Below, one piece after another: positions 12,696 through 31,579 of a stretch of DNA of 64,000 nt (its first letter is position 1; every line of letters starts with the position of its first letter). Source of the stretch: Escherichia coli O127:H6 str. E2348/69 (GTDB lineage Bacteria > Pseudomonadota > Gammaproteobacteria > Enterobacterales > Enterobacteriaceae); assembly GCF_000026545.1 (NCBI RefSeq), contig NC_011601.1, one strand, 5' to 3'. The notes under the pieces are model-generated. The model was not told the origin of the DNA and did not search any database. It saw nothing but the letters and a program-made list of their open reading frames with translations. Position numbers and translations under genes: made by a program.

Positions 12696-14494
12696 TAGTA
12701 GACATCTCGCTGATAACGGCGCTCTACGCGCAGCTCACTTAAAAATTCATCCGCCGCTTCGGTGTCCATGCCACCAAATTCGGCAATCACTTCCAGAAGT
12801 GCCTGCTCAACGTCTTTCGCCATGCGATTAGCGTCGCCGCAGACATAAATGTGGGCACCGTCATTGATCCAGCGCCACAGCTCTGCGCCCTGTTCGCGCA
12901 GTTTGTCTTGTACGTAAATTTTTTCTTTTTGATCGCGCGACCAGGCGAGATCGATGCGCGTCAGCACGCCTTCTTTGACGTAACGCTGCCATTCCACCTG
13001 GTAGAGGAAATCTTCCGTAAAGTGTGGGTTGCCAAAGAATAGCCAGTTTTTACCCGGCGCTTCGTCGGCAGCACGCTGCTGCATAAAGGCACGGAACGGC
13101 GCGATGCCGGTGCCAGGGCCAATCATGATCACCGGGGTTTCCGGATTGGTTGGCAGGCGGAAGTTGTCGTTATGTTCGATAAAGACGCGGACTTCACCCT
13201 CTTCTTCCACACGATCCGCGAGGAAGCTGGAGGCACCACCGGCACGGGCGCGGCCTTCCACGTCGCAACGCACCACACCAACGGTAACGTGCACTTCGTT
13301 CTCGACTTCCGCCTGCGAGGAGGCGATGGAATACAGGCGCGGGGTCAGCGGGCGCAGCAGATTAATCAGCGCTTCGGCATCCAGTTGCGCCGGAGAGAAA
13401 CGCACCATGTCGACAATCGGCGTCGTCGCGGCGTAATGCTGTAATTTCGCTTTATCGCCCACCAGCGGCAGCAGCGTTTCGCTGCGGGTAAGCGTGGCAT
13501 AGTTCTCAACAATGTTGGCGGTGTTAACGGTCAGTTCGAAGTGCCACTGTAGCGCTTCGTTCAGAGGCAACGTTTTGCCCTCGACGGTGACAGGTTCATC
13601 GCCTTTCAGCCACAGCAGTTCGACAAGTTCTTTCACCAGTGCCGGATCGTTCTGATACCAGACGCCCAGCGCGTCACCCGGCTGGTAACGCAGGCCAGAG
13701 TCACCTAAGTCAATTTCAATGTGACGAACGTCTTTTTCAGAGTTACGCCCGGTAATTTTCTGGTTAACAGAGAGGCTCGCCACCAGCGGCGCGTCTTTGC
13801 TATACGGGCTGGTGTGGATTTCATTTACCGTGCCAGTAGCGACGGATTGCGAAGGTGCCGCGACAGGCGCACGCGATTTAAGCGCATCAACCACGCGGGC
13901 GCGCCACTCGCTGGCAGCAGCCTGGTATTCAACATCGGCATCGACACGGTCGAGCAGGCGTTCACCGCCCAGTTCCGCCAGCTTACTGTCAAAATCTTTC
14001 CCGGACTGGCAGAAAAATTCATAAGAGCTATCGCCGAGGCTAAACACGGCAAACGCGGTGTTTTCCAGCTTTGACGCTTTTTTGGAGAACAGGAACTTAT
14101 GCAGCGCGACGGCTTCTTCCGGCGGTTCCCCTTCCCCTTGCGTTGACGTCACCACGATAAGCAGTTTTTCGCTGGCGATTTGTTTGAATTTATAGTCACC
14201 CGCGTTCACCAGCTTAACGTTCAGTTTTGCCGCTAATAAATCATCGCGTAATGCTTCAGCAACCCGGCGCGCATTGCCGGTTTGCGAGGCGGAGATAATA
14301 GTTATACCCGGCATTTCTGCGGCGGGCGCTGGCGTCGCTGCAAGCGCAGCAGGCTGCTGGTTGAGCACGCCCCAGAAATAGCCAGAAACCCAGGCAAGCA
14401 GGGTAGGAGTTAAATCGGTCGTGGCCGCCTGAAGGCGTGCCAGTTGCTCCGGGTTCAACGGAAGCAACGCGGAAGGTGGGACCTGTGTCGTCAT
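12695..14494 (-). CDS. cysJ: sulfite reductase flavoprotein alpha subunit
   Basis: 599-aa ORF with flavodoxin-like and FAD/NADPH (CPR-like) domains ([20 protein letters not shown]). Confidence 0.97.
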
Positions 14495-15252: not shown

Positions 15253-16524
15253 ATGGAAGACGACTGCGACATTATTATTATCGGTGCCGGAATTGCTGGC
15301 ACCGCTTGCGCGTTACGCTGCGCGCGAGCGGGTTTATCCGTTTTGTTACTGGAACGAGCGGAGATTCCCGGCAGCAAAAATCTTTCCGGCGGGCGGCTAT
15401 ACACTCATGCGCTCGCGGAACTCCTCCCGCAATTTCACCTGACCGCGCCTCTTGAACGACGCATCACTCACGAAAGTCTTTCTCTGTTAACGCAAGATGG
15501 CGCAACGACGTTTTCCAGCTTACAGCCCGGCGGTGAATCCTGGAGTGTATTACGTGCACGATTCGATCCGTGGCTGGTTGCCGAAGCCGAAAAAGAAGGT
15601 GTCGAATGCATCCCCGGTGCGACGGTAGATGCACTGTATGAAGAAAACGGCAGGGTGTGTGGTGTCATTTGTGGTGACGATATTCTTCGCGCCCGTTATG
15701 TGGTGCTGGCAGAAGGTGCCAACAGCGTCCTGGCGGAACGCCACGGGTTAGTGACTCGTCCTGCTGGCGAAGCGATGGCATTGGGGATCAAAGAAGCGCT
15801 GGCGCTGGAACCATCCGCTATTGAAGAACGTTTTCATCTGGAGAATAACGAAGGCGCAGCGTTGCTGTTCAGCGGCGGAATCTGTGATGACTTACCCGGC
15901 GGCGCATTTCTTTATACTAATCAACAAACGCTCTCGTTAGGGATTGTTTGCCCGCTCTCCTCCCTTACGCAAAGTCGTGTTCCGGCAAGCGAGCTGCTGG
16001 CTCGCTTTAAAACGCATCCGGCAGTGCGCCCGCTTATCAAAAACACGGAATCACTGGAGTATGGTGCGCATCTGGTGCCAGAAGGTGGCCTGCGCAGTAT
16101 GCCGGTGCAATACGCCGGTAACGGCTGGCTGCTGGTGGGCGATGCGTTGCGCAGTTGCGTCAATACCGGAATTTCCGTGCGCGGTATGGATATGGCGCTA
16201 ACTGGCGCGCAGGCGGCGGCACAAACGCTGATAAGCGCCTGCCAGCACCGCGAGCCGCAAAATCTGTTTCCGCTTTATCATCACAACGTAGAGCGCAGCC
16301 TGCTGTGGGATGTTCTACAGCGTTATCAGCATGTTCCGGCGCTTTTGCAACGCCCTGGCTGGTATCGGGTGTGGCCTGGGTTAATGCAGGATATTTCCCG
16401 TGATTTATGGGATCAGGGGAATACACCTGTTCCACCGCTGCGCCAGTTGCTCTGGCGTCATTTACGTCGTCACGGCCTGTGGCATCTGACGGGCGATGTT
16501 ATCAGGAGTCTGCGATGTCTGTAG
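15253..16524 (+). CDS. ygcN: FixC-like FAD-dependent oxidoreductase (ETF-quinone oxidoreductase family)
   Basis: Track ORF from 15223. The likely start is MEDDCDIIIIGAGIAGTACA (dinucleotide-binding GxGxxG). Confidence 0.88.
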   Translation: MEDDCDIIIIGAGIAGTACALRCARAGLSVLLLERAEIPGSKNLSGGRLYTHALAELLPQFHLTAPLERRITHESLSLLTQDGATTFSSLQPGGESWSVLRARFDPWLVAEAEKEGVECIPGATVDALYEENGRVCGVICGDDILRARYVVLAEGANSVLAERHGLVTRPAGEAMALGIKEALALEPSAIEERFHLENNEGAALLFSGGICDDLPGGAFLYTNQQTLSLGIVCPLSSLTQSRVPASELLARFKTHPAVRPLIKNTESLEYGAHLVPEGGLRSMPVQYAGNGWLLVGDALRSCVNTGISVRGMDMALTGAQAAAQTLISACQHREPQNLFPLYHHNVERSLLWDVLQRYQHVPALLQRPGWYRVWPGLMQDISRDLWDQGNTPVPPLRQLLWRHLRRHGLWHLTGDVIRSLRCL

Positions 16525-16775
16525 CCCGTAATCTCTGGCGCGCTGCCGATGCGCCGCACATTGTTCCGGCTGACTCCGTTGAGCGCCAGACGGCACAACG
16601 GTTGATTAACGCCTGTCCAGCAGGTCTTTTTTCGCTCACACCTGAAGGTGGCTTACGTGTTGATTATCACGGCTGCCTGGAGTGTGGCGCCTGCCGTTTG
16701 CTGTGCGACGAATCAACACTACAACAGTGGCGCTATCCGCCTTCCGGATTCGGCATCACCTACCGCTTTGGATAA
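16515..16775 (+). CDS. ygcO: FixX-like ferredoxin
   Basis: 86-aa product starting MSVARNLW (Met37 of track ORF 16407..16775). It has a Cys cluster CLECGACRLLC. It overlaps the ygcN end by 10 nt. Confidence 0.85.
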   Translation: MSVARNLWRAADAPHIVPADSVERQTAQRLINACPAGLFSLTPEGGLRVDYHGCLECGACRLLCDESTLQQWRYPPSGFGITYRFG

Positions 16776-16791
16776 ATAATAAGGATAATTT

Positions 16792-17367
16792 ATGCCCCTC
16801 TTACACCTGCTCCGCCAGAATCCGGTGATTGCTGCCGTTAAAGATAATGCCAGCCTGCAACTGGCAATCGACTCTGAATGCCAGTTTATTTCCGTGTTGT
16901 ACGGCAATATCTGCACCATTAGTAATATCGTTAAAAAGATTAAGAACGCCGGGAAATATGCTTTTATTCATGTTGATTTGCTGGAAGGCGCGTCAAATAA
17001 AGAAGTGGTGATTCAGTTTTTGAAACTGGTGACCGAGGCGGACGGAATTATCAGTACCAAAGCCTCAATGCTGAAAGCAGCAAGAGCGGAAGGTTTTTTC
17101 TGTATTCATCGACTGTTTATTGTTGATTCGATTTCGTTTCACAACATTGATAAGCAAGTTGCGCAATCGAATCCGGATTGTATTGAGATCCTGCCAGGCT
17201 GCATGCCTAAAGTGCTGGGCTGGGTGACGGACAAAATCCGCCAACCGCTGATTGCTGGCGGGCTGGTGTGCGATGAAGAAGATGCGCGTAATGCGATTAA
17301 CGCGGGTGTTGTGGCGCTTTCCACCACGAATACTGGGGTCTGGACGTTAGCGAAAAAATTGCTTTGA
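16792..17367 (+). CDS. ygcP: GlpP-family (glycerol-3-phosphate-responsive-type) transcription antiterminator homologue
   Basis: 191-aa ORF, the last gene of ygcNOP. The family assignment is from memory of the K-12 annotation. Confidence 0.8.
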   Translation: MPLLHLLRQNPVIAAVKDNASLQLAIDSECQFISVLYGNICTISNIVKKIKNAGKYAFIHVDLLEGASNKEVVIQFLKLVTEADGIISTKASMLKAARAEGFFCIHRLFIVDSISFHNIDKQVAQSNPDCIEILPGCMPKVLGWVTDKIRQPLIAGGLVCDEEDARNAINAGVVALSTTNTGVWTLAKKLL

Positions 17368-17514: not shown

Positions 17515-18375
17515 TTATTGGCAATCTGCGTGAATGTTTGTCACCAGTGCCTCCAGCACCACTTTCCAGTCATCAATCACGCCAACATCTGCCTGTGAAA
17601 ATACCGCTGCACTGGCGTCATGATTAATCGCCACCACAAACTTGCTATTGCGTACGCCCGCCATTAACGCTGCTGCGCCGGAAGCGCCAACAACAATACA
17701 CACCTCAGGTGCCAGCAGATGTCCGGAAATACCAATCACTTTTTCGGCATCAACGCCACCGTTCATCACTCGTGCCCGACTGTAGCCCACTTCGGCTCCC
17801 ATCTTTTCTGCCAGCATAGCGATTTCCTGGTTATCTGCCTCTCCGCCCTGCCCCACCACCAGCACCCGTCTGGCCTCAGCTAATGGGTCACGGGTAACAT
17901 TTTTCAGGTTTTCTATGCTGATAAGCCAGTCTGGAAGCGCGCCGGGGACAATGTTCAGTTGCTGCATCCCAGAGGGCAACGTGGCGTTTTTATCTGCTCC
18001 CGCCTGACGTGCCAGCGAAAGGCATAGCGGGCGTTTTTCTGTTTGCAGCGTCGCCGTTAGCGCATTTCCCCAGTGGGATTTGCGCACGCTTACGGTTGGA
18101 ATATCTAACGAAGTCACCTGGCAGATGCTTGCACCATGTAAACGCCAGGCCAGCCGGGTCGACAGTTCATCGCCAAACGTTCCCGGCGGAAAGAGAACAA
18201 CGTCCGCAGGCGTTCGTTGCCACTGTTCCACCAGCACATCCAGCACCTGTTCCGCAACCATCGGCTGTGGTTCTATTTGCCAATGTGCCAGGGTACAACC
18301 GCTGAAATCCTGCGCCGCCAGCCAGCTCGCTATTGCGGCATGTTCCTGATTTATTGTCACAATTGCGATATTCAT
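17515..18375 (-). CDS. ygcQ: electron transfer flavoprotein alpha subunit homologue (FixB-like)
   Basis: Track ORF 17515..18408. The start is taken at MNIAIVTINQEH (Met12), which makes an ATGA overlap with the ygcR stop. Confidence 0.88.
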   Translation of the reverse strand: MNIAIVTINQEHAAIASWLAAQDFSGCTLAHWQIEPQPMVAEQVLDVLVEQWQRTPADVVLFPPGTFGDELSTRLAWRLHGASICQVTSLDIPTVSVRKSHWGNALTATLQTEKRPLCLSLARQAGADKNATLPSGMQQLNIVPGALPDWLISIENLKNVTRDPLAEARRVLVVGQGGEADNQEIAMLAEKMGAEVGYSRARVMNGGVDAEKVIGISGHLLAPEVCIVVGASGAAALMAGVRNSKFVVAINHDASAAVFSQADVGVIDDWKVVLEALVTNIHADCQ

Positions 18376-19151
18376 GGCTGCATCCTTTGGCGTAAATAGT
18401 CCTGCCATAGCTTTTGCGCTTTTTCTGCTACCGTTTGCCCATCAATCAGCGCCGCTCTGCGTCGTTGCTCTGGCCTTGCCAGTTGCAGGCACTGTATCGC
18501 TGGCGCTTCCGCGGCAACAGTTTCGCGGGTAATCTCCGCTTTCCCCGCCGCCATTCGCTGGCGCATTCCCGGTACTGGCAAGGCCACTTCACCACACTGA
18601 CGCACGGCAATCACCGCAGGCAAGCGAACCCGGCAACAGCGTACCCCATGTTCAGTACGCTGTTCGAGGGTGATAAACGGTGCGTCGAGAGTAAAGCGCT
18701 CCACCTGGGTGAAGCAGGGCCAGACCAGCATTTCCGCCAGCAAAAATGGCGTTTGCCCATTCTGCCCTTCGCTGCTTTGGCAGCCAGTAATTATCAGATC
18801 CAGCGGATTCTGGTACTGCCATTCGGCAATATGGCGAGCGACAAATTCCGGCGCAAAGCACAGATCTGCCGCCGTCTCCAGCAATACAGCGTCCTCAAAC
18901 CCAAGAGCCATGAGATAGCGCAGCCAGTGCAACGCCCGTTCATCCCCCATGCTCAACGCGGTTAAAGACATCGGCGTACCGTTTTTTCTCTGCGCCAACA
19001 GCAGCGCGGCGGCAGCCTGTTCATCGGCACCGAGTAAACTTCGCAGAAGCGAAACATCCGGTCCGATATTACCCTGAGCCGCCGCCTGCCACTCTTTTTC
19101 CGCCAGCATTCCGGCATCCGGTTCGGCTTTAAACGCTAACAGAATGTTCAT
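18372..19151 (-). CDS. ygcR: electron transfer flavoprotein beta subunit homologue (FixA-like)
   Basis: Track ORF 18372..19157. The start is taken at MNILLAFKAEPD. Confidence 0.88.
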   Translation of the reverse strand: MNILLAFKAEPDAGMLAEKEWQAAAQGNIGPDVSLLRSLLGADEQAAAALLLAQRKNGTPMSLTALSMGDERALHWLRYLMALGFEDAVLLETAADLCFAPEFVARHIAEWQYQNPLDLIITGCQSSEGQNGQTPFLLAEMLVWPCFTQVERFTLDAPFITLEQRTEHGVRCCRVRLPAVIAVRQCGEVALPVPGMRQRMAAGKAEITRETVAAEAPAIQCLQLARPEQRRRAALIDGQTVAEKAQKLWQDYLRQRMQP

Positions 19152-20466
19152 TCGCACCTCCTACATTTCCCGCCGCCACCAGCGGGAGTGCTTTGGTTTC
19201 TGGTGCCCATAGCCAGGTCACAACAAAACCAACCAACAACACTGCCGCCAGGAGCAATAAGGTGACTTGCATTCCCCACTGCGCCAGCACCCACGGCAGC
19301 AGGCCCGTACTTACTGCCGCGCCCAACCGACTCATGGCGGTGGCAAAACCGACGCCCAGCGAGCGAATGTCAGTAGGAAAACTTTCCGCAGGCAAAATGC
19401 CCACCAGATTACTGACTGCCGAAATGGTGGTGCTGAAGAGAACAAAAAGCAGCAGCGTTAATGAACTGCCGGAAGGCAAACAGGCCATCACTACCAGCGT
19501 TGCCGCCAGCAGCAAAAAACTTCCCAGTAAAAATCTGCGATGTGCCAGCAGGTGCGTCAGAACTAATCCCAGCAGCGCGCCCACAATTAACAACGCATTA
19601 AGCATCAGGCTGGCAGTCAGCGCATCTTCCAGACCAATAGTTTGGGCGATGGTCGGCAGCCAGGTATAAATCACAAACCATGGGATTACGAGGCAGACAA
19701 AGAAGACGCTGTTAAACGCCGTGCGCCGCCAGTAGCGCGAAGAGAACAAGGTTTTGATGTGTTTATGGGTCGCCGTTGCCACTTCATCGCCCAGTAAAAC
19801 ATGCGGGCCAAAATAGCGATGAACGATAGCGTGAGCTTCTGCAAAACGCCCCTGGCGCAGTAGCCAGCGTGGCGATTCCGGCGTGCCCCAACGTAGCAGC
19901 GTAATCAGCAAAGCTGGTAACGCCGCTGATGCCAGCAGCCAGCGCCAGGCCTCCGGGCTTTCGGAAATAAAGTGATGTCCGGCAATACTTGCCAGCACAT
20001 AGCCTACGGTCCACACCACACTGAATGCGCCCAGCAAAATACCGCGATGGCGGCGCGGGGAAAATTCAGCCAGCAAGGTGTGACCGACTGAGTAATCGCC
20101 TCCCAGACCAATGCCGATCAAAATGCGCAATCCAATAAGATGCTCTGGCGTGGTGGCAAAAAATTGCAAGAACGAAGCGAGCGTAATCAGCATAAAACTG
20201 AAGGTGAAGATTTTTTGCCGCCCGATATGGTCGGAGATCCACCCCAAAACCAGGCTGCCAAGAAACAAACCAAGTAACGCCGAGCCGCCGATCATTCCCG
20301 CCATAAACGGCGTCAGTTGCATGGCGGGCGTAAGCTGAATAATGGCGTAACCAATGACGCCGAGAACATAACCGTCGGTCAGGTGTGCGCCGAAAGTGAG
20401 CGCAGCAATGCGGCAGTGAAAACGGTTAAGTGGTAAATCATCCATTCGCACCGGTGAAGTGTTCAT
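19129..20466 (-). CDS. ygcS: MFS sugar-porter-family transporter
   Basis: Track ORF 19129..20556. The K-12-like start MNTSPVRMDDLPLNRFH is at Met31, giving 445 aa. About 12 predicted TM segments and the GRQK/PESPRWL sugar-porter motifs. Confidence 0.88.
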   Translation of the reverse strand: MNTSPVRMDDLPLNRFHCRIAALTFGAHLTDGYVLGVIGYAIIQLTPAMQLTPFMAGMIGGSALLGLFLGSLVLGWISDHIGRQKIFTFSFMLITLASFLQFFATTPEHLIGLRILIGIGLGGDYSVGHTLLAEFSPRRHRGILLGAFSVVWTVGYVLASIAGHHFISESPEAWRWLLASAALPALLITLLRWGTPESPRWLLRQGRFAEAHAIVHRYFGPHVLLGDEVATATHKHIKTLFSSRYWRRTAFNSVFFVCLVIPWFVIYTWLPTIAQTIGLEDALTASLMLNALLIVGALLGLVLTHLLAHRRFLLGSFLLLAATLVVMACLPSGSSLTLLLFVLFSTTISAVSNLVGILPAESFPTDIRSLGVGFATAMSRLGAAVSTGLLPWVLAQWGMQVTLLLLAAVLLVGFVVTWLWAPETKALPLVAAGNVGGANEHSVSV

Positions 20467-20559
20467 CTTTACCCCTTCATTGTCCGGTAATAAGAACGGC
20501 TTCTCGCCTGAGAAGCCGAAAAGGCAACGCCCTGTCATCGAGGAACGCTGCCTCACACA

Positions 20560-22014
20560 TTATTTTTCAATCGGATAGATAGTACCCGTATTCATAATGC
20601 CGTTAGGATCGAACTGTTTTTTCAGACCTTCCAGCAACGTCCACGCGCTGCCGTGTTCCAGTTTGCTCCAGTGAACGCGATGTTTACCGATACCGTGGTG
20701 GTGCACCATCGAACCGCCGAGACGAATGGTTTCTTCGCAGATGATTTTGTTGAGCGGATTGTGGTACTTGTCGATTTCCTCTTCCGGCTTACAGTCAACG
20801 ACGTTGTAGTCGTAGACGAAGTACATGTTGGTGCCGTTCTGATAGCTATGAGAGGAGTGACCGCCCAGCATGGTGATGTCGTCGGCGTGCGGGAACTCGG
20901 TACGAATACGGTTAATAACGCTTTCGTAGATTTCGTGAATGCAGCTCCAGCAGCCGGACACTTCAGTGGTAAAGCCCATGTTGCCGGTTTTGAGGATCTG
21001 CACACGTTCGGCAGCCACTTTATCCGGTCCCCAGTTCAGGTTGTTAAACCAGGTTTCGATCAGCTTGCTGTCCACGCGCTGGCACTGCGGGTAGCACGCC
21101 ACGATTTCAGCAATCCCTTCACCCGTCGCCTTCGCAATGCGAGGGTTACCTTCAGCCATAAAGATCAGCACGCATTTGCCGTCGGCAAAATGGGTGAAGT
21201 GTTGGGTGCCATCTTCAGCATCATACAAACGAGCAATCGACGGACGATACCCTTCCACCATGATTTCACGCAGGATGTTGAAGCCGGTTTTCATGTCTTC
21301 CAGCACATAGCCATAGAAGAGATTGTTTTCCGGCGTAAATTTGAAGATTTTCACTGTGACTTCAGTGATATAGCACAGTGCACCTTCGTTGCCGATGATG
21401 ATATGACGAATGTCCGGGCCAGCCGCGCGACGTGGCACGTTTTTAATGCGTGTGACGGTGCCATCTGCCAGCACCGCTTCCAGACCAACGACCATATCCT
21501 CGATTGCGCCGTAGAGTGTGGAAAACTGCCCGATACTGCGGGTCGCCACCAGGCCGCCCATCTGCGCCAGCGGCTTTGACTGCGGAGAATGCCCCGTGGT
21601 GTAACCTTTTTCACGCAGCGCGTTTTCCAGCACCTCCAGCGGAACGCCACATTGCGCCGTGGCCTGCATATTCTCAATATCAATATTAATGATTTGATTC
21701 ATGGCGGAGCCGTCGAGCACCACCGAGTTTTCCACAACGGTTTCCAGCCCACCTTCGGTGGCGGAAGCACCGGTACGTGGCACACCGTTAATTTTGTGCG
21801 CATTCATAAAATTCAGCACACGGGATACTTGTTCTGTGGAACCGAGTTTTACGACCGCTGCCGGAATTGGCAAAGTATAAATGCCATGAATATCCGGAAA
21901 TTTACGAAAACGGTCAATACTGTTCTTCTTTAATACTGTTTCATCGGTAATTACGCGATCTGCACCAACAATTTCCTTTAGCTGGTCGACAATCGCTACG
22001 CGAGATAAAGACAT
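20560..22014 (-). CDS. ygcU: FAD-linked oxidase (PCMH-type FAD domain; alkyl-DHAP synthase / D-lactate dehydrogenase-like)
   Basis: 484-aa ORF. Family assigned from overall similarity remembered for YgcU. Confidence 0.88.
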   Translation of the reverse strand: MSLSRVAIVDQLKEIVGADRVITDETVLKKNSIDRFRKFPDIHGIYTLPIPAAVVKLGSTEQVSRVLNFMNAHKINGVPRTGASATEGGLETVVENSVVLDGSAMNQIINIDIENMQATAQCGVPLEVLENALREKGYTTGHSPQSKPLAQMGGLVATRSIGQFSTLYGAIEDMVVGLEAVLADGTVTRIKNVPRRAAGPDIRHIIIGNEGALCYITEVTVKIFKFTPENNLFYGYVLEDMKTGFNILREIMVEGYRPSIARLYDAEDGTQHFTHFADGKCVLIFMAEGNPRIAKATGEGIAEIVACYPQCQRVDSKLIETWFNNLNWGPDKVAAERVQILKTGNMGFTTEVSGCWSCIHEIYESVINRIRTEFPHADDITMLGGHSSHSYQNGTNMYFVYDYNVVDCKPEEEIDKYHNPLNKIICEETIRLGGSMVHHHGIGKHRVHWSKLEHGSAWTLLEGLKKQFDPNGIMNTGTIYPIEK

Positions 22015-22083
22015 AGTAATTCCTTCCTGATAATAAAAATGGAATAGTTATTAATAAGAGAAAACAGAAACCACCGTTATGAA

Positions 22084-22869
22084 TTAGCGCACTAAATAAC
22101 CGCCATCAACCACTAATAAATGTCCGTTGACATAATTCGATGCCGGACTTGCGAGGAATACGGCTGCACCCATTAAATCCTGAGTATCACCCCAACGGTT
22201 TGCCGGAATATGATCAAGAACACGCTGGTTAGTTTCTGGATTACTACGGGTCGCCAGCGTAATATCGGTTGCATAATAACCAGGAGCAATACCATTCACC
22301 TGAATATTATATTGGCCTAATTCATCGCAATAGGCTTTGGTGAATCCGGCAAGAGCATGTTTAGTGGCAGAATAAGCAGGTGACCATTGACCACCTAAGT
22401 AAGAGAACAATGAACAGATATTAATGATTTTACCGCTTTTCTGCGGGATCATAATTTTTGCCGCTTCGTAGCTTAACTCGAATGCGGCGGTCAGGTTCAC
22501 GTCAATCATCGGGTCCCAGTCGGCACGACCAAAGTCCAGCACCTTATTCAGCTTACAAATACCGGCATTGTTAACCAGAATATCTACGGTACCGAAGCGC
22601 TCACAGCAGGCAGCGATAATCTTCTGCGGCGCGCCTTCTGCGGTGATATCCACCTGCATAAAATCAACTTCGACACCCTGTTTTTCAATCATTTCCTTTG
22701 TTTCGCCGTTATCTTTGACGAAACTAGGAATAAAGACATTTGCGCCAGCTTTGGCCAACGCCATGGCAAATGCCTGGCCTAAACCGCTATTCCCGCCAGT
22801 AACAATTGCTGTTTTACCTTTCAGGGAGAAAAAATCCATTGAGAACGCATTGAGAGATTCGATTGACAT
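22084..22869 (-). CDS. ygcW: short-chain dehydrogenase/reductase (KduD/gluconate-5-dehydrogenase-like)
   Basis: Track ORF 22084..22944. The start is taken at MSIESLNAF (Met26, SD GGAG), giving 261 aa. It has TGGNSGLG and YxxxK (YSATKHA) motifs. Confidence 0.9.
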   Translation of the reverse strand: MSIESLNAFSMDFFSLKGKTAIVTGGNSGLGQAFAMALAKAGANVFIPSFVKDNGETKEMIEKQGVEVDFMQVDITAEGAPQKIIAACCERFGTVDILVNNAGICKLNKVLDFGRADWDPMIDVNLTAAFELSYEAAKIMIPQKSGKIINICSLFSYLGGQWSPAYSATKHALAGFTKAYCDELGQYNIQVNGIAPGYYATDITLATRSNPETNQRVLDHIPANRWGDTQDLMGAAVFLASPASNYVNGHLLVVDGGYLVR

Positions 22870-22893
22870 AGTTAGCTCCAATTTCCGTAAGGC

Positions 22894-22940
22894 AAAAAAA
22901 AAGAAAGGTAACTTCCCCCGCGAGAGGGAAGTTACCTTTC
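22894..22940 (-). terminator. intrinsic terminator inside the ygcW 5' leader (candidate attenuator)
   Basis: Minus strand reads GAAAGGTAACTTCCC-tctcgcgg-GGGAAGTTACCTTTC followed by nine T, a perfect 15-bp stem. It ends 24 nt upstream of the ygcW ATG. Confidence 0.75.
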
Positions 22941-22993
22941 TCATTATCTCTGGTAACTGGAGATAATTTTTAGCATAAGGACATAACTGCTAA

Positions 22994-23009
22994 TGTGATC
23001 GTAATCACA
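22994..23009. promoter_or_regulatory. consensus CRP-binding site in the ygcW / yqcE divergent control region
   Basis: TGTGATCGTAATCACA matches TGTGA-N6-TCACA with no mismatch. Confidence 0.7.
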
Positions 23010-23115
23010 GTGTGATGTTCGTATTGTCAAATAATTTAAAAAAGCAGAAGCGTGATTACTCTCACACAACACCTCTGCTTTCCATGTTATTTCTTATTGC
23101 AATTACTAGAGACCT

Positions 23116-23162
23116 GAGAAAAGTAATCCACCTGAAAGGGCGGCTTACTTTTCTCTTTTTTT
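23116..23162 (+). terminator. intrinsic terminator inside the yqcE 5' leader (candidate attenuator)
   Basis: GAGAAAAGTAA-(tCCaCCtgaaagGGcGGc)-TTACTTTTCTC followed by seven T. The stem is 11 bp, extendable through CCaCC/GGcGG. It ends 24 nt upstream of the yqcE ATG. Confidence 0.72.
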
Positions 23163-23186
23163 GTCTATTACAAATGGGAATACGAT

Positions 23187-24464
23187 ATGCAACACAACTC
23201 ATATCGCCGTTGGATAACCCTCGCGATAATTAGTTTTAGCGGCGGCGTTAGTTTCGACCTGGCTTATTTACGTTATATTTATCAAATTCCCATGGCAAAA
23301 TTTATGGGATTCAGCAATACCGAGATAGGTTTAATAATGAGTACCTTTGGTATTGCGGCCATTATTTTCTATGCCCCTAGCGGCGTTATTGCCGATAAAT
23401 TTTCACATCGCAAAATGATTACTTCCGCGATGATCATTACCGGATTACTGGGTCTGTTAATGGCAACATATCCACCGCTGTGGGTAATGCTCTGTATTCA
23501 GGTCGCCTTTGCGATAACGACGATTTTAATGCTGTGGTCGGTGTCGATTAAAGCCGCATCGTTGCTGGGCGATCATAGCGAGCAAGGGAAAATTATGGGC
23601 TGGATGGAAGGGCTGCGCGGCGTCGGTGTAATGTCGCTGGCGGTGTTTACCATGTGGGTCTTTTCTCGCTTTGCACCGGATGACAGCGCCAGCCTGAAAA
23701 CGGTCATTATTATCTATAGTGTGGTTTACATTCTGCTGGGCATTTTGTGTTGGTTTTTTGTTAGCGATAACAACAATCTGCGCAGTGCCAATAACGAAGA
23801 AAAACAGTCATTCCAGCTTAGCGACATCCTGGCCGTTTTGCGCATCAGCACCACCTGGTATTGCAGCATGGTGATTTTTGGTGTCTTCACCATCTACGCC
23901 ATTCTGAGTTACTCCACCAACTATCTGACCGAAATGTACGGCATGTCGTTGGTGGCGGCGAGCTACATGGGGATTGTGATCAACAAAATCTTCCGCGCGC
24001 TGTGCGGCCCACTTGGCGGCATTATCACCACCTACAGTAAAGTGAAATCCCCTACCCGCGTGGTCCAAATCCTTTCCATCATCGGTTTGCTGGCGTTGAC
24101 AGCCCTGCTCGTCACGAACTCTAACCCGCAATCGGTCGCGATGGGGATTGGCCTGATTTTATTACTGGGATTCACCTGTTACGCCTCACGCGGGCTGTAC
24201 TGGGCCTGCCCTGGCGAAGCGAGAACACCGTCTTACATTATGGGCACCACGGTAGGTATTTGTTCGGTGATTGGATTTCTGCCGGATGTCTTCGTTTACC
24301 CGATTATCGGCTACTGGCAAGACACCCTGCCCGCTGCAGAAGCCTACCGCAACATGTGGCTAATGGGCATGGCGGCGCTTGGCATGGTGATCATCTTTAC
24401 CTTTTTGCTGTTCCAAAAAATTCGTACTGCTGATAGCGCCCCCGCAATGGCTAGCAGCAAGTAA
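23187..24464 (+). CDS. yqcE: MFS transporter
   Basis: 425-aa ORF with multiple TM segments. Position as in K-12. Confidence 0.88.
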   Translation: MQHNSYRRWITLAIISFSGGVSFDLAYLRYIYQIPMAKFMGFSNTEIGLIMSTFGIAAIIFYAPSGVIADKFSHRKMITSAMIITGLLGLLMATYPPLWVMLCIQVAFAITTILMLWSVSIKAASLLGDHSEQGKIMGWMEGLRGVGVMSLAVFTMWVFSRFAPDDSASLKTVIIIYSVVYILLGILCWFFVSDNNNLRSANNEEKQSFQLSDILAVLRISTTWYCSMVIFGVFTIYAILSYSTNYLTEMYGMSLVAASYMGIVINKIFRALCGPLGGIITTYSKVKSPTRVVQILSIIGLLALTALLVTNSNPQSVAMGIGLILLLGFTCYASRGLYWACPGEARTPSYIMGTTVGICSVIGFLPDVFVYPIIGYWQDTLPAAEAYRNMWLMGMAALGMVIIFTFLLFQKIRTADSAPAMASSK

Positions 24465-24490
24465 GCCAGGAAAATTACAGGAGAAAAATC

Positions 24491-25969
24491 ATGTCGAAAA
24501 AATACATCATAGGGATTGATGGCGGAAGTCAGAGCACAAAAGTGGTGATGTACGATCTGGAAGGTAATGTGGTTTGCGAAGGCAAAGGCTTATTGCAGCC
24601 GATGCACACGCCAGATGCCGATACCGCAGAACATCCTGACGACGATTTATGGGCATCACTATGTTTTGCCAGTCACGATTTGATGAGCCAGTTTGCCGGA
24701 AATAAAGAAGATATTGTCGGCATTGGCCTGGGCTCAATCCGTTGCTGCCGTGCGTTATTGAAAGCCGATGGTACGCCAGCCGCGCCGTTGATTAGCTGGC
24801 AGGATGCACGCGTTACACGCCCTTACGAACACACTAATCCTGACGTGGCCTATGTCACCTCTTTTTCGGGTTATCTGACACATCGCTTAACCGGCGAGTT
24901 TAAAGACAATATCGCCAACTATTTTGGTCAGTGGCCGGTGGATTATAAGAGCTGGGCATGGAGCGAAAATGCCGCGGTAATGGAAAAGTTTAATATCCCC
25001 CGCCAGATGCTTTTTGACGTGCAAATGCCAGGCACTGTTCTTGGGCATATCACACCACAAGCTGCGCTGGCGACACATTTCCCGGCTGGGCTGCCGGTTG
25101 TTTGTACCACCAGTGATAAACCGGTAGAAGCTCTGGGAGCCGGGTTACTGGATGATGAAACGGCGGTAATTTCTCTTGGCACCTACATCGCGTTGATGAT
25201 GAACGGCAAAGCACTGCCGAAAGATCCGGTCGCGTACTGGCCGATTATGTCTTCTATTCCGCAAACATTGCTGTATGAAGGTTACGGTATTCGCAAAGGC
25301 ATGTGGACGGTGAGCTGGCTGCGCGACATGTTAGGCGAGTCGTTAATTCAGGATGCCAAAGCACAGGATCTTTCACCGGAAGATTTGCTCAACAAAAAAG
25401 CGTCTTGCGTGCCACCTGGTTGTAATGGGCTGATGACGGTGCTGGACTGGCTGACCAATCCGTGGGAACCGTACAAACGCGGAATTATGATCGGCTTTGA
25501 TTCCAGCATGGATTACGCATGGATATATCGTTCGATACTGGAAAGCGTGGCGCTGACGCTGAAGAACAATTACGACAATATGTGTAATGAAATGAATCAC
25601 TTTGCAAAGCATGTGATCATTACTGGCGGCGGTTCGAACAGCGATCTGTTTATGCAGATTTTTGCCGACGTGTTCAACCTTCCGGCACGCCGTAACGCCA
25701 TTAATGGTTGTGCAAGTCTGGGGGCAGCGATCAATACGGCGGTAGGTCTGGGGCTATACCCGGATTACGCAACGGCTGTCGACAAAATGGTTCGCGTGAA
25801 AGATATCTTTATGCCTGTTGAGAGCAACGCCAAACGCTACGACGCGATGAATAAAGGCATTTTCAAAGACCTAACCAAACACACTGATGTGATCCTGAAA
25901 AAATCGTATGAAGTGATGCATGGGGAATTGGGGAATGCGGATTCGATCCAGAGCTGGTCGAATGCGTAA
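24491..25969 (+). CDS. ygcE: FGGY-family carbohydrate kinase
   Basis: 492-aa ORF with the N-terminal IGIDGGSQSTK motif typical of FGGY kinases. Confidence 0.9.
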   Translation: MSKKYIIGIDGGSQSTKVVMYDLEGNVVCEGKGLLQPMHTPDADTAEHPDDDLWASLCFASHDLMSQFAGNKEDIVGIGLGSIRCCRALLKADGTPAAPLISWQDARVTRPYEHTNPDVAYVTSFSGYLTHRLTGEFKDNIANYFGQWPVDYKSWAWSENAAVMEKFNIPRQMLFDVQMPGTVLGHITPQAALATHFPAGLPVVCTTSDKPVEALGAGLLDDETAVISLGTYIALMMNGKALPKDPVAYWPIMSSIPQTLLYEGYGIRKGMWTVSWLRDMLGESLIQDAKAQDLSPEDLLNKKASCVPPGCNGLMTVLDWLTNPWEPYKRGIMIGFDSSMDYAWIYRSILESVALTLKNNYDNMCNEMNHFAKHVIITGGGSNSDLFMQIFADVFNLPARRNAINGCASLGAAINTAVGLGLYPDYATAVDKMVRVKDIFMPVESNAKRYDAMNKGIFKDLTKHTDVILKKSYEVMHGELGNADSIQSWSNA

Positions 25970-26133: not shown

Positions 26134-27054
26134 ATGAGCGCAAGAGTATGGGTACTCGGTGATGCGGTTGTTGATTTATTACCCGAAAGCCAGGGGAGAC
26201 TACTACAGTGTCCTGGCGGGGCGCCTGCTAATGTTGCAGTCGGTATCGCAAGGCTGGGGGGGAAAAGTGCCTTTATTGGCAAAGTTGGCGATGATCCTTT
26301 CGGTCGCTTTATGTATCAGACACTGAGTACAGAAAATGTTGATACACGTTATATGTCTCTTGATCCTCAACAACGCACCTCAATTGTGGCTGTAGGACTT
26401 GATGAGCAAGGAGAAAGAAACTTTACCTTTATGGTACGCCCAAGTGCCGATCTTTTTTTACAACCTGATGACCTTCCTACATTTGGGCCGGGTGAATGGC
26501 TCCATCTTTGTTCCATTGCGCTCAGTGCAGAACCTTCCCGAAGTACCGCATTTCTGGCTATGGAGAAAATACGTCAGGCTGGCGGAAACATCAGTTTTGA
26601 TCCCAATATCCGCAGCGATCTCTGGCAGAGTGAAGCGCTATTAAGAAAATACCTTGATCGCGCGCTTTCGCTGGCGAATATCGCTAAATTGTCCGAAGAA
26701 GAGTTGCTATTCATCAGTGGCGAAAGCCAGGTTCAGCAAGGCGCATATTCATTAGTACAACGTTATTCGTTGACTTTATTGCTTATCACACAAGGAAAAA
26801 ATGGCGTACTTGTGTATTTTCAGGGGCAGTTTATCCACTATCCCGCCAAACCTGTTTCTGTCGTCGATACGACCGGGGCAGGAGATGCTTTTGTCGCTGG
26901 ATTACTTGCAGGTCTGGCTGATTCTGGAATACCAACAAATACCAGACAGCTTGAACGAATCATTGCACAAGCTCAGATTTGTGGTGCTCTGGCGACCACG
27001 GCTAAAGGCGCGATGACCGCCTTACCCCGACAACACGATCTCCCTTCACAATAG
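26134..27054 (+). CDS. scrK: fructokinase (PfkB family)
   Basis: 306-aa ORF with WVLGDAVVDLLPE...LLQCPGGAPANVA and DTTGAGDAF motifs. Clearly homologous to, but diverged from, the Klebsiella/pUR400 ScrK I remember. Confidence 0.9.
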   Translation: MSARVWVLGDAVVDLLPESQGRLLQCPGGAPANVAVGIARLGGKSAFIGKVGDDPFGRFMYQTLSTENVDTRYMSLDPQQRTSIVAVGLDEQGERNFTFMVRPSADLFLQPDDLPTFGPGEWLHLCSIALSAEPSRSTAFLAMEKIRQAGGNISFDPNIRSDLWQSEALLRKYLDRALSLANIAKLSEEELLFISGESQVQQGAYSLVQRYSLTLLLITQGKNGVLVYFQGQFIHYPAKPVSVVDTTGAGDAFVAGLLAGLADSGIPTNTRQLERIIAQAQICGALATTAKGAMTALPRQHDLPSQ

Positions 27055-27104
27055 TGATCCTGCTGTTGTATCTGTAACCCGATTTGTCGTGCCTGTCACA
27101 TTTA

Positions 27105-27118
27105 CTAAATCGGTTTAG
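27105..27118. promoter_or_regulatory. ScrR-type operator, distal copy upstream of scrY
   Basis: CTAAATCGGTTTAG, a near-perfect 14-bp palindrome. Confidence 0.6.
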
Positions 27119-27163
27119 CGAAAATAATTGCTCTGGCTAAAAAGTCAGCTTTATTATCAACAC

Positions 27164-27177
27164 CTAAACCGGTTTAG
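27164..27177. promoter_or_regulatory. ScrR-type operator overlapping the scrY promoter
   Basis: CTAAACCGGTTTAG, a perfect 14-bp palindrome. A perfect TATAAT hexamer lies at 27193-27198. Confidence 0.65.
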
Positions 27178-27197
27178 CATTTTAGCAATTTTTATAA

Positions 27198-28739
<1,542 letters not shown>

Positions 28740-28799
28740 TACCAGACAGCCTCACGGATGTGAGGCTTTTACTGAAATAACAATGAATTAGAGGGTTAT

Positions 28800-30170
28800 A
28801 TGGATTTCGATAAAATCGCCCAATCGTTGCTTCCTTTATTAGGTGGTAAGGAGAACATCGCCAGTGCAGCACATTGCGCCACTCGCCTACGGCTGGTACT
28901 GGTTGACGACACACTTGCCGATCAACATGCCATTGGCCAGATTGATGGAGTGAAAGGTTGTTTTCGTAATTCAGGGCAAATGCAAATCATCTTTGGCACC
29001 GGCGTGGTTAATAAAGTCTATGCTGCCTTTATTCAGGTTGCAGGTATTAGCGAATCCAGTAAAGCAGATACCGCTCGACTCGCCGCTCAAAAACTCAATC
29101 CTTTTCAGCGAATAGCACGGCTACTTTCTAATATTTTTGTCCCCATCATTCCAGCCATTGTTGCTTCTGGTTTATTAATGGGGCTCCTGGGAATGGTGAA
29201 AACATATGGCTGGGTGAATGCCGATAATGCGATTTATATCCTGCTGGATATGTGCAGTTCAGCCGCATTTATTATTCTCCCCATCCTTATTGGCTTTACT
29301 GCTGCTCGTGAATTTGGTGGAAATCCTTATCTTGGCGCGACATTAGGAGGGATTCTGACTCACCCGGCACTCACAAATGCCTGGGGCGTTGCTGCGGGAT
29401 TTCAGACAATGAACTTCTTCGGTTTTGAAATCGCCATGATTGGCTATCAGGGAACGGTTTTCCCCGTGCTTCTGGCAGTATGGTTTATGAGCATAGTGGA
29501 AAAACAGTTACGCAGGTTTATCCCTGATGCTCTGGATCTCATTCTGACGCCATTTCTGACTGTCGTCATTTCTGGCTTTATCGCTCTTTTGATTATTGGT
29601 CCGGCAGGACGAGCGTTAGGTGACGGTATCTCTTTCGTTCTCAGCACGCTGATTGCACACGCAGGCTGGTTAGCAGGGTTGTTATTCGGCGGGCTATATT
29701 CAGCGATTGTTATTACGGGTATTCATCATAGCTTCCACGCAATTGAAGCAGGACTTTTAGGTAACCCTGCAATCGGTGTTAATTTCCTGCTGCCTATTTG
29801 GGCAATGGCAAACGTTGCGCAAGGAGGTGCATGTCTGGCGGTATGGTTTAAAACCAAAGATACAAAAATTAAAGCAATCACCCTACCCTCGGCCTTTTCC
29901 GCAATGTTAGGGATTACTGAAGCCGCTATTTTTGGTATCAACCTTCGTTTTGTTAAACCTTTTATTGCGGCCTTAATTGGTGGCGCTGCCGGCGGTGCCT
30001 GGGTTGTCTCTGTTCACGTTTATATGACTGCCGTTGGTCTGACCGCAATACCCGGCATGGCAATCGTTCAGCCAACATCGTTGGTTAATTATATTATTGG
30101 AATGGTGATTGCTTTCGCTGTCGCTTTTAGCCTCTCTTTATTACTCAAATACAAAACGGACGAGGAGTAA
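28800..30170 (+). CDS. scrA: PTS sucrose-specific EIIBC component
   Basis: 456-aa ORF with EIIB active-site context AAHCATRLRL, followed by a polytopic EIIC domain. Confidence 0.92.
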   Translation: MDFDKIAQSLLPLLGGKENIASAAHCATRLRLVLVDDTLADQHAIGQIDGVKGCFRNSGQMQIIFGTGVVNKVYAAFIQVAGISESSKADTARLAAQKLNPFQRIARLLSNIFVPIIPAIVASGLLMGLLGMVKTYGWVNADNAIYILLDMCSSAAFIILPILIGFTAAREFGGNPYLGATLGGILTHPALTNAWGVAAGFQTMNFFGFEIAMIGYQGTVFPVLLAVWFMSIVEKQLRRFIPDALDLILTPFLTVVISGFIALLIIGPAGRALGDGISFVLSTLIAHAGWLAGLLFGGLYSAIVITGIHHSFHAIEAGLLGNPAIGVNFLLPIWAMANVAQGGACLAVWFKTKDTKIKAITLPSAFSAMLGITEAAIFGINLRFVKPFIAALIGGAAGGAWVVSVHVYMTAVGLTAIPGMAIVQPTSLVNYIIGMVIAFAVAFSLSLLLKYKTDEE

Positions 30171-31579
30171 TGTCGATGCCTTCACAAATGCCCGCGATTT
30201 TACAGGCAGTGATGAAAGGTCAGTCCAAAGCACTGGCAGATGCCCACTATCCTTGTTGGCATCTCGCTCCAGTCACCGGACTAATGAACGATCCAAATGG
30301 CTTTTGTTGGTCTGGAGGCCGCTATCATCTGTTTTATCAATGGAATCCACTGGCTTGTGATCATAAGTACAAATGTTGGGGGCACTGGAGTTCGACGGAT
30401 TTATTGCACTGGCAGCATGAACCATTAGCGCTAATGCCCGATAAAGAGTACGACCGTAATGGTTGTTACTCAGGAAGCGCGGTTAATAATCAGGGCGTTC
30501 TCACACTTTGCTATACCGGTAATGTTAAGTTTGATGATGGCAGCAGAACGGCATGGCAATGCCTGGCCACCGAAAATAACCAGGGCGGGTTTGATAAACT
30601 AGGCCCTGTCATACCGTTACCTGATGGTTACACCGGACATGTTCGTGATCCAAAAGTCTGGAAGCACAACAGCCAATGGTACATGGTGCTTGGCGCGCAA
30701 GATAAAGAGAAACGGGGGAAAGTGCTGCTGTATTCCTCTGTCGATCTCTATACCTGGTCTTTTCATGGAGAAATTGCTGGTAACGGTCTGAATGAAATAG
30801 ATAACGCAGGATACATGTGGGAATGTCCTGATCTTTTCGCCCTTGATGGTGAATACATTCTCCTCTGTTGCCCCCAGGGAATGGTGCGCGAACATGAGCG
30901 CTATCTGAATACTTATCCCTGCGCCTGGCTACATGGACAGTTTGATTACGAGACAGGCAAATTTACGCATGGCGCTTTCTCAGAGCTGGATGCGGGATTT
31001 GAATTCTATGCACCACAGACGATGGAAGCCCCGGACGGGCGACGATTGCTGGTCGGCTGGATGGGGGTTCCTGATGGCGAAGAGATGTTGCAGCCAACCA
31101 GAAAGCATCATTGGCAGCATCAAATGACCTGTTTTCGCGAACTCTCATTCCAGAAGGGAAAATTGTTTCAGATGCCAATCAGGGAACTCGCGCAACTGCG
31201 TGAAGCTGAACACTTCTGGCAAGGAAAAGCGGATCATGCGCCGCATGTCGAAATTGAACGCCTGGAAATGGACATCATTCCGTCGGGTGAGCTGTATCTG
31301 AATTTTGGCAATGCGCTGGCACTGCATCTTAATGACGATGGTATTCAACTACAGAGGAGAAGCCTTGCAGGGCAAGAGAAACTAACTCGTTACTGGCGAG
31401 GAAGCGTAACGTCACTGAAGATTCTCTGTGACAGTTCCAGCGTAGAGATATTCATCAATAATGGTGAAGGTGTAATGAGTAATCGTTATTTTCCCCATCA
31501 TCCAGCTTCGCTGATATTACAGGGTGAGTCTGACGTCACGTTACGCTACTGGTCGCTACGCGCCTGCATGGTAGAATGA
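30170..31579 (+). CDS. scrB: sucrose-6-phosphate hydrolase (GH32)
   Basis: 469-aa ORF with GH32 catalytic motifs MNDPNG, RDPKV and WECPD. The ATG overlaps the scrA stop. Confidence 0.92.

Follow-up and report, generated by a model that had tools for sequence, protein, structure and literature searches.

The spacer between the divergent genes ygcW and yqcE of Escherichia coli O127:H6 str. E2348/69 was analysed in a window of 64,000 nucleotides (the whole stretch of DNA under study, from contig NC_011601.1). Each of the two transcription units that leave this spacer begins with a leader ending in an intrinsic terminator, and the neighbouring unit ygcN-O-P encodes YgcP, a protein of the GlpP antiterminator family. 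The stretch is 97–100% identical in 5045 of the 5426 complete genomes. The transcription units and the genes referred to below are as follows.

15253-17367, plus strand: ygcN-O-P (open reading frame list, family matches, MG1655 annotation)
16792..17367, plus strand: ygcP, GlpP-family (PF04309) protein, presumed RNA-binding antiterminator
17515-22869, minus strand: ygcQ-R-S-U-W, the leftward unit with ygcW as its first gene
22084..22869, minus strand: ygcW, short-chain dehydrogenase/reductase (SDR), NCBIfam KduD-like match at 7.7e-105
23187..25969, plus strand: yqcE (major facilitator superfamily (MFS) transporter) and ygcE (FGGY kinase), the rightward unit (family scan, MG1655 annotation)

The original prediction, made from the sequence alone, had proposed that both divergent units are gated by antitermination at leader terminators, with YgcP as the likely factor and CRP in control of transcription. 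Our analysis supports this core idea, in which the role of YgcP remains presumptive. The predicted pair of terminators, with their stems, their runs of nine and seven U and their distances of 24 nt to the start codons, is present in full. The elements of the ygcW leader are listed first.

22889..22962, minus strand: ygcW leader RNA, equated with the published RNA ecr2774 (PMC4681348 coordinates mapped via the MG1655 annotation)
22894..22942, minus strand: intrinsic terminator, 19-bp stem and U9 (sequence, terminator scan, folding)
22903-22917 / 22927-22941, minus strand: 15-bp terminator stem, GAAAGGTAACTTCCC / GGGAAGTTACCTTTC
22937..22951, minus strand: conserved purine-rich loop AGAGAUAAUGAGAAA
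22952..22957, minus strand: antiterminator 5' strand GUUACC, which pairs with GGUAAC at 22936..22931

The 15-bp stem of the ygcW terminator extends to 19 pairs (GAGAAAGGUAACUUCCC..GGGAAGUUACCUUUCUU, 22942..22901 on the minus strand), the U9 run lies at 22902..22894 and a gap of 24 nt separates it from the ATG at 22869, which is preceded by a GGAG Shine-Dalgarno sequence. The hairpin is the best terminator-like site within 12 kb, and the folding of the leader gives z = -6.8 against shuffled sequence, with 0 of 200 shuffles as good. Two features of the region were considered and set aside. An open reading frame of 286 amino acids that starts at an in-frame ATG at 22944 (AAUGAGAAAGG; 22084-22944, minus strand) is an artefact of the mechanical list of reading frames, because its translation would have to cross the terminator and the U9 run while the ATG at 22869 has the GGAG sequence. 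A pairing in the minimum-energy fold of the ygcW leader that would sequester the Shine-Dalgarno sequence was also rejected, its 5' partner being mostly upstream of the start site.

The yqcE leader is built in the same way.

23101..23163, plus strand: yqcE leader RNA, equated with the published RNA ecr2775 (PMC4681348 coordinates mapped via the MG1655 annotation)
23102..23127, plus strand: antiterminator hairpin, AUUACU, loop AGAGACCUGAGAAA, AGUAAU (minimum-energy structure of the nascent RNA)
23116..23162, plus strand: intrinsic terminator, 11-bp lower stem, CCaCC/GGcGG upper stem and U7 (sequence, folding, conservation)
23116-23126 / 23145-23155, plus strand: arms of the 11-bp terminator stem, GAGAAAAGTAA / TTACTTTTCTC

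Its terminator is laid out as GAGAAAAGUAA-CCaCC..GGcGG-UUACUUUUCUC (23116-23155) and is followed by U7 at 23156-23162, again 24 nt before the start codon (ATG 23187). Folding of this leader gives z = -4.2, and none of 200 shuffled sequences folds as well. The distance from the terminator to yqcE differs in some relatives: Klebsiella spallanzanii and Citrobacter youngae have ~130 nt extra between terminator and start codon, and five members of the Serratia fonticola group (L053, L056, L057, L058 and L066) have a stable hairpin of 80–100 nt there; the extra sequence may be a REP-like element or a second regulatory structure.

In both leaders the RNA can form a second structure that is incompatible with the terminator. 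The minimum-energy structure of the nascent ygcW RNA is the antiterminator form, a 7-bp helix of AGUUACC with GGUAACU (-6.7 kcal/mol), and the 3' half of the purine-rich loop closed by this helix doubles as the start of the terminator 5' arm. In the yqcE leader an A-U pair stands where ygcW-type leaders have G-C (pair 6-36). The antiterminator hairpin takes the first ~12 nt of the terminator 5' arm, so that antiterminator and terminator are mutually exclusive. Its energy is -6.7 kcal/mol against -34 kcal/mol for the complete ygcW leader and -1.4 against -21 kcal/mol for the complete yqcE leader, and this imbalance fits an antiterminator that is stabilised by a protein, with termination as the default. 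The complementarity of AGUUACC and GGUAACU had been noticed in the original prediction and proves to be a conserved, covarying helix. AGUUACC had there been assigned to the loop of a small hairpin at 22943-22967; this hairpin exists in the present sequence, but it is not the element that presents AGUUACC, since its 5' arm is not conserved (it varies freely between close relatives) and it is located at the RNA 5' end (~22962) or upstream of it. GUUACY instead pairs directly with the terminator arm.

Upstream of the two leaders lie the following candidate promoter elements.

22967..22975, minus strand: predicted extended -10 of the ygcW leader, TGcTAAAAA (sequence and constant spacing across species)
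22994..23009, either strand: CRP site 1, TGTGATCGTAATCACA, a perfect TGTGA-N6-TCACA with its centre at 23001.5, ~-41.5 from the ygcW leader start
23051..23066, either strand: CRP site 2, CRP-like, CGTGATTACTCTCACA, 9/10 matches with its centre at 23058.5, ~-41.5 from the yqcE leader start
23085..23093, plus strand: predicted extended -10 of the yqcE leader, TGtTATTTC (sequence and conserved spacing)

Both extended -10 elements probably mark promoters, with predicted starts at 22960 (ygcW) and 23100 (yqcE). The arrangement recurs widely: a CRP-like site together with an (A/G)TGnTA extended -10 is found at fixed spacing in nearly all 140 leaders. On the ygcW side the CRP-like site (8–10 of 10 matches) has its centre 43.5–45.5 nt before the G of GUUAC in nearly every species, and on the yqcE side it is centred 42.5–44.5 nt upstream of the first base of NUUAC in almost all leaders. 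As judged from the predicted starts, both CRP sites are at the class II position, one per promoter, and their centres lie ~57 bp apart, serving two predicted back-to-back promoters. The mismatch-free box that the original prediction placed between the leaders is therefore present but is not a single shared box, the second site at 23051-23066 having been missed. CRP site 1 was predicted in 2007 (PMC1794230), was bound in chromatin immunoprecipitation sequencing of enterotoxigenic E. coli (PMC4287617) and was bound in vitro with a dissociation constant of 1.7 nM (PMC12871828), and yqcE-ygcE is listed as CRP-activated (PMC8085971). The segment between the two CRP sites (23010-23050) consists of ~40 bp of A/T-rich sequence (GTGTGATGTTCGTATTGTCAAATAATTTAAAAAAGCAGAAG) and has an extra TGTGA half-site abutting CRP site 1.

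Short RNAs have already been reported from this spacer. From RNA sequencing data, Romero et al. 2014 (PMC4681348, Table S5 and Fig. 7) described two 'potential novel sRNAs, simple stem-loop' (sRNA, small RNA) in the MG1655 ygcW-yqcE spacer, namely ecr2774 on the minus strand (2898315-2898388, 73 nt) and ecr2775 on the plus strand (2898527-2898590, 63 nt), the latter detected on a northern blot with medium-dependent abundance. The authors linked them neither to attenuation, nor to YgcP, nor to the downstream operons. Two distances that are independent of the coordinate conversion identify these RNAs. Their 5' ends are 139 nt apart compared with 140 nt predicted, and their outer ends are 276 nt apart compared with 269 nt, counted inclusively, between the ends of the U-runs. 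From the match in 5'-end spacing and outer-end distance we conclude that ecr2774 and ecr2775 are the terminated leaders. The published 5' ends lie upstream of the hairpins and the 3' ends at the U-runs (PMC4681348), in agreement with the start-site check named in the original prediction. Both in LB and in M9-glucose, transcripts begin before the hairpins and end at them, so that termination is the default state. The original prediction knew of no description of the system. This holds for its mechanism: literature searches for ygcP, the remaining ygc genes and the two RNAs gave no report of a function or mechanism, and RefSeq genomes annotate no feature beneath either leader. It does not hold for its parts, because the terminated leaders have been published as candidate sRNAs and the CRP site as predicted and bound.

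The distribution of the leaders was followed in 80 loci from 80 Enterobacterales species, retrieved with a YgcP profile. Wherever the locus is long enough to tell, the divergent pair ygcW-ygcU / yqcE-ygcE is found together with ygcP, while the electron transfer flavoprotein (ETF), ygcN/O and ygcS genes are shifted or lost among the loci. The leader terminators and the motif described below are found in 70/72 and 71/72 Enterobacterales intergenic regions, and the hairpins are kept wherever the cluster is kept, as the original prediction required. The ygcW-yqcE intergenic length is 313–471 nt in Enterobacterales with one exception. In that exception, Limnobaculum eriocheiris (13853-13988 of its locus), the spacer of 136 nt is one perfect palindromic terminator between A9 and T9; the two leaders appear to be fused, and the promoters and CRP sites appear to be deleted. 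Three ygc loci, titled Advenella kashmirensis metagenome-assembled genome, Chryseobacterium sp. and Pseudomonas lundensis, encode proteins 73–95% identical to those of E. coli and show the Enterobacterales gene order, so that contamination or mis-binning is likely.

Alignment reveals that both leaders are copies of one element, which reads (C)A[G/A]UUAC[C/U] - AGAGA(Y)N2-4(U)GAGAAA - [A/G]GUAA[C/U] and continues into the terminator. The regular expression with which the Enterobacterales leaders were gathered fixes UUAC and some of GUAAC. However, it placed no constraint on the covarying columns, a search with the covariance model R1 regained the same leader set, and it was R1 that supplied the distant examples. 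R1 gives two matches of 58–83 bits in each of 44 intergenic regions. In the present window it matches the ygcW leader at 22894-22962 (79.3 bits) and the yqcE leader at 23097-23162 (71.8 bits). Elsewhere in 1.04 Mb (the 20-kb loci and the rest of the 64-kb window) there was no further match, and no copy of the motif was found upstream of ygcN/ygcP or ygcS. As R1 matches nothing beyond the two leaders, the local regulon consists of the ygcW and yqcE transcription units. With the yqcE leader as query, blastn in its 'distant' setting found in E. coli genomes the locus itself only; this search is too insensitive to serve as a regulon search, and a scan of the region with Rfam 15 gave no match at gathering score (SurA sRNA, for example, scored 23.4 bits against a cut-off of 100).

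Both alternative helices are conserved and covary. The lower stem of the terminator is 97.6% paired in 46 diverse leaders, with double changes at three pairs. Pair 33-63 is UG in 24 and UA in 21 of these leaders, one of many U-G/U-A alternations, and pair 31-65 alternates between A-U and G-C. Because such wobble pairs are valid only on the gene-directed strand, selection has acted on the RNA and not on a palindrome in the DNA. The 6-bp antiterminator helix, GUUACY/RGUAAC, is 93.5% paired in Enterobacterales (pair 6-36, GC 33 and AU 12; pair 11-31, UA 36 and CG 7) and 96.4% paired once distant homologues are added. Changes on both sides are seen at 4 of its 6 pairs, which was matched by 3 of 500 shuffles, and registers slid by 1–3 columns are 19–62% paired. 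The clearest independent case of covariation is Fodinisporobacter, with GUUGCU/AGCGAAC and GCGCU/AGCG. In the loop closed by this helix, AGAG and GAGAAA are invariant or nearly so (alignments A2 and A3), and we presume that the purine-rich loop of the ygcW leader is the contact for a protein.

The best candidate for such a protein is encoded in the cluster itself. The full-length G3P_antiterm profile (PF04309) matches YgcP with 209.8 bits and an E value of 2.4e-62 as the sole Pfam match, which bears out the earlier view of YgcP as a GlpP homologue; comparison with PDB 3kts, annotated as a glycerol uptake operon antiterminator, gives 2e-27. Orthologues that are 55–63% identical occur in Vibrio, Photobacterium, Clostridium, Thalassobacillus and Fodinisporobacter. 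These distant orthologues always stand beside genes for an SDR, an FGGY kinase and an FAD-linked oxidase, and often beside ETF genes and a BCCT, OpuA-type or MFS transporter. Every distant YgcP locus examined carries the R1 motif directly 5' of the SDR, FGGY-kinase or FAD-oxidase genes, with 35–68 bits, and in Fodinisporobacter and Vibrio the motif again forms a divergent pair. The reverse search gave the same association: of the six sites in metagenomes that match GTTACTAGAGN{3,6}GAGAAAAGTAAC, every one belongs to a ygc-type locus, and a ygcP homologue is present in all four of the metagenome motif loci that reach far enough. In complete loci the motif was never found without an adjoining PF04309 gene. 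In five non-Enterobacterales loci (L082, L084, L085, L087 and L088) transporters of the BCCT or OpuA type (glycine-betaine/choline family) are added to, or replace, the YqcE/YgcS-like MFS transporters; these may hint at the substrate class of the ygc pathway.

Taken together, the elements described above would form one module present in two back-to-back copies, each consisting of a CRP site, an extended -10, a transcription start, the motif of ~30 nt, the terminator, ~24 nt of spacer and the start codon. In our model cAMP-CRP, bound at ~-41.5 in the class II position, would activate both promoters. Transcripts would start within a few nucleotides of (C)AGUUAC and by default end 63–73 nt later, so that the operons stay silent. 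The nascent RNA would first form a weak hairpin in which GUUACY and RGUAAC close the purine-rich loop AGAGAYnnUGAGAAA; alone, this hairpin (-1.4 to -6.7 kcal/mol) would be far too weak to compete with terminators of -21 to -34 kcal/mol. YgcP charged with its inducer would bind and stabilise the hairpin, and the polymerase could then continue into ygcW-U-S-R-Q and yqcE-ygcE. The inducer would most likely be the phosphorylated product of the FGGY kinase YgcE, as judged by the parallel of GlpK, glycerol-3-phosphate and GlpP. We consider it likely that CRP-activated class II promoters feed two attenuators which are released by YgcP charged with the YgcE product or a related metabolite; within this model we infer the binding of YgcP to ygc leader RNA, its dependence on a ligand and the identity of that ligand.

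Several observations weigh against this model or limit its reach. The link between YgcP and the leaders is drawn from gene neighbourhood and family annotation. To our knowledge, RNA binding among the TIM-barrel-like PF04309 proteins has been demonstrated only for B. subtilis GlpP. Serratia microhaemolytica (L074, 7431-7988) encodes a YgcP homologue, 70% identical, without the other ygc genes, and no R1 match lies within 7–10 kb of this ygcP, the only orphan among the 80 loci; ygcP itself, in ygcNOP, is likewise without an upstream motif. A small number of independent events, perhaps in four or five lineages, probably accounts for the compensatory changes in the antiterminator helix. The placement of ecr2774 and ecr2775 in the window uses an offset of 1978 between U00096.2 and U00096.3, based on the rpoS coordinates. 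When the leaders of the canonical Bacillales glp genes, which are controlled by GlpP, are scored with R1 they reach 9.6–16.6 bits, no better than ordinary terminators, and the resemblance between ygc and glp leaders, which was traced by eye in five sequences, is confined to their architecture. Finally, YgcP is 31% identical to a glp-type GlpP (that of Priestia). A Bacillaceae protein of the YgcP type is 59% identical to E. coli YgcP and 29% identical to GlpP, and from these values YgcP represents a separate subfamily with its own RNA motif and targets.

Four other explanations of the leaders have to be considered. In the first, antitermination is brought about by a factor other than YgcP, such as another RNA-binding protein or a processive system of the Rho/NusG type, and YgcP is a metabolic enzyme. 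The association of YgcP with the leaders by neighbourhood only leaves room for this, all the more as the SDR, kinase and oxidase genes co-occur with the motif as strictly as ygcP does. However, among the products of the conserved core YgcP alone comes from a family in which an RNA-binding antiterminator has been demonstrated, the loci keep no second regulator gene in common, and the ygc leader resembles the targets of GlpP in layout. We therefore regard another factor as unlikely.

In the second, the leaders are protein-independent riboswitches, in which a metabolite binds the GUUACY-loop-RGUAAC hairpin directly and YgcP has an enzymatic or an unconnected regulatory role. Two covarying structures that exclude each other, together with a highly conserved loop, are a signature of riboswitches too. 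Yet a leader of 63–73 nt consists of a hairpin of 27–34 nt and the terminator only, which leaves no room for a typical aptamer, and its conserved part is a single-stranded purine tract of the kind typical of protein sites. Rfam contains no matching family, a PF04309 gene is always beside the motif in complete loci, and known GlpP-controlled leaders appear to have the same layout. A riboswitch is in our view quite unlikely.

In the third, ecr2774 and ecr2775 are stand-alone sRNAs that act in trans, and the operons are transcribed from elsewhere or hardly at all. That discrete and abundant RNAs were detected, one of them on a northern blot (PMC4681348), is what such sRNAs would give. Against this, the order of motif, terminator and gene is kept in every genome despite changes in gene order, and also in Firmicutes. 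Only ~24 nt without a promoter-like element lie between terminator and start codon, so that the genes depend on read-through, and the position 24 nt before the operons argues for a role of both RNAs in cis. A purely trans-acting function is very unlikely, although the leaders may act in trans in addition to attenuation. The fourth reading treats the inverted repeats not as RNA structures but as operators in the DNA, recognised by a dimeric transcription factor. It draws on the long conserved palindrome GAGAAAAGTAAC..GTTACTTTTCTC near each promoter and is scarcely credible. Half of the leaders carry U-G pairs, which would become C-A mismatches in DNA or on the opposite strand. The U-run occurs without exception on the side of the gene and never on the other, and the middle of the repeat is free to change in both length and sequence. 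Published RNAs end at the repeats, and the loci share no conserved transcription-factor gene.

If antitermination by YgcP is correct, the ygc switch would be the first case of GlpP-type antitermination in Proteobacteria, with an RNA motif that spans phyla, though it would introduce no new principle. The ten-gene ygc cluster of the best-studied bacterium would gain a concrete and testable regulatory model. An RNA element of ~65 nt with two alternative structures is defined, and two published 'orphan sRNAs' can be reinterpreted as attenuated leaders. GlpP-type control, studied only for the glp genes of B. subtilis, would be extended to a distinct subfamily and motif from Clostridia to Enterobacterales. 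A fusion of the leader to a reporter would offer a direct screen for the inducer, and hence for the substrate of the pathway. A wider reading, which we find rather doubtful, is that motif and YgcP form a self-contained cassette which is horizontally mobile, senses a new phosphorylated metabolite and was transferred between Firmicutes and Gammaproteobacteria along with the catabolic pathway, and that the terminated leaders could also titrate YgcP or act in trans as a combined attenuator and sRNA.

Beyond the cluster, four genes of the scr-type sucrose regulon (PfkB fructokinase, LamB-family porin, EIIBC of the phosphotransferase system (PTS) and GH32 hydrolase) follow directly after ygcE at 26134-31579 of the window. 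MG1655 is without scr-type genes between ygcE and queE.

The closest known system is the antitermination of the glpD, glpFK and glpTQ leaders by GlpP in B. subtilis (Holmberg & Rutberg 1992; Glatz et al. 1996, 1998; Darbon et al. 2002; all as cited in PMC9604022). For comparison we used the glpD leader of B. subtilis (PMC9604022, Table S4) and the glpF and glpD leaders of Priestia and Lysinibacillus. In these five sequences the glp leaders read, by eye, AAGUUAAUA - N6-9 - (G/U)GAGAAUnGGAGAGACC and continue into the terminator: a GAGA..GAGA loop is closed by a helix of 4–6 bp (for example GGUC/GACC) whose 3' strand is also the first part of the terminator arm. The two systems have in common a PF04309 protein, a leader terminator that acts by default and an AGUUA box near the RNA 5' end; as far as the layout read by eye goes, they would also share a purine loop closed by a short helix overlapping the terminator 5' arm. 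In both, an FGGY kinase of the regulon could make the inducer and catabolite control is superimposed. They differ in their targets, which in ygc are genes for an SDR, an FAD oxidase, ETF, transporters and a kinase and not glpF, glpK or glpD; in the 5' box, which in ygc leaders itself forms the antiterminator strand; in catabolite control, which for ygc would be class II activation by CRP and not CcpA; and in the ligand, which for ygc is probably not glycerol-3-phosphate. The comparison suggests that GlpP-family proteins may recognise a GAGA..GAGA loop closed by a short helix, and this apparently shared layout is, by analogy, the strongest ground so far for thinking that the ygc leaders are read by a protein of the GlpP family.

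Antitermination of the BglG/SacY/LicT type, in which a ribonucleic antiterminator (RAT) hairpin overlaps a leader terminator, is the known protein-mediated catabolic case in E. coli (bgl). Here too a hairpin stabilised by protein overlaps the 5' arm of a leader terminator before sugar-catabolic genes. In contrast, YgcP has neither CAT nor PRD domains, the ygc motif is unrelated to RAT, and no PTS-dependent phosphorylation is implied; an NCBIfam scan of the other gene products of the cluster gave no match to an antiterminator family. Besides BglG, E. coli probably has in YgcP a catabolic antiterminator of a second class. At the level of initiation, the predicted ygc promoters resemble the class II CRP promoters galP1 and melR, in which a consensus or near-consensus CRP site ~41.5 bp upstream replaces the -35 element and is combined with an extended -10. 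Unlike these, the two ygc promoters stand back to back, and each would feed an attenuator.

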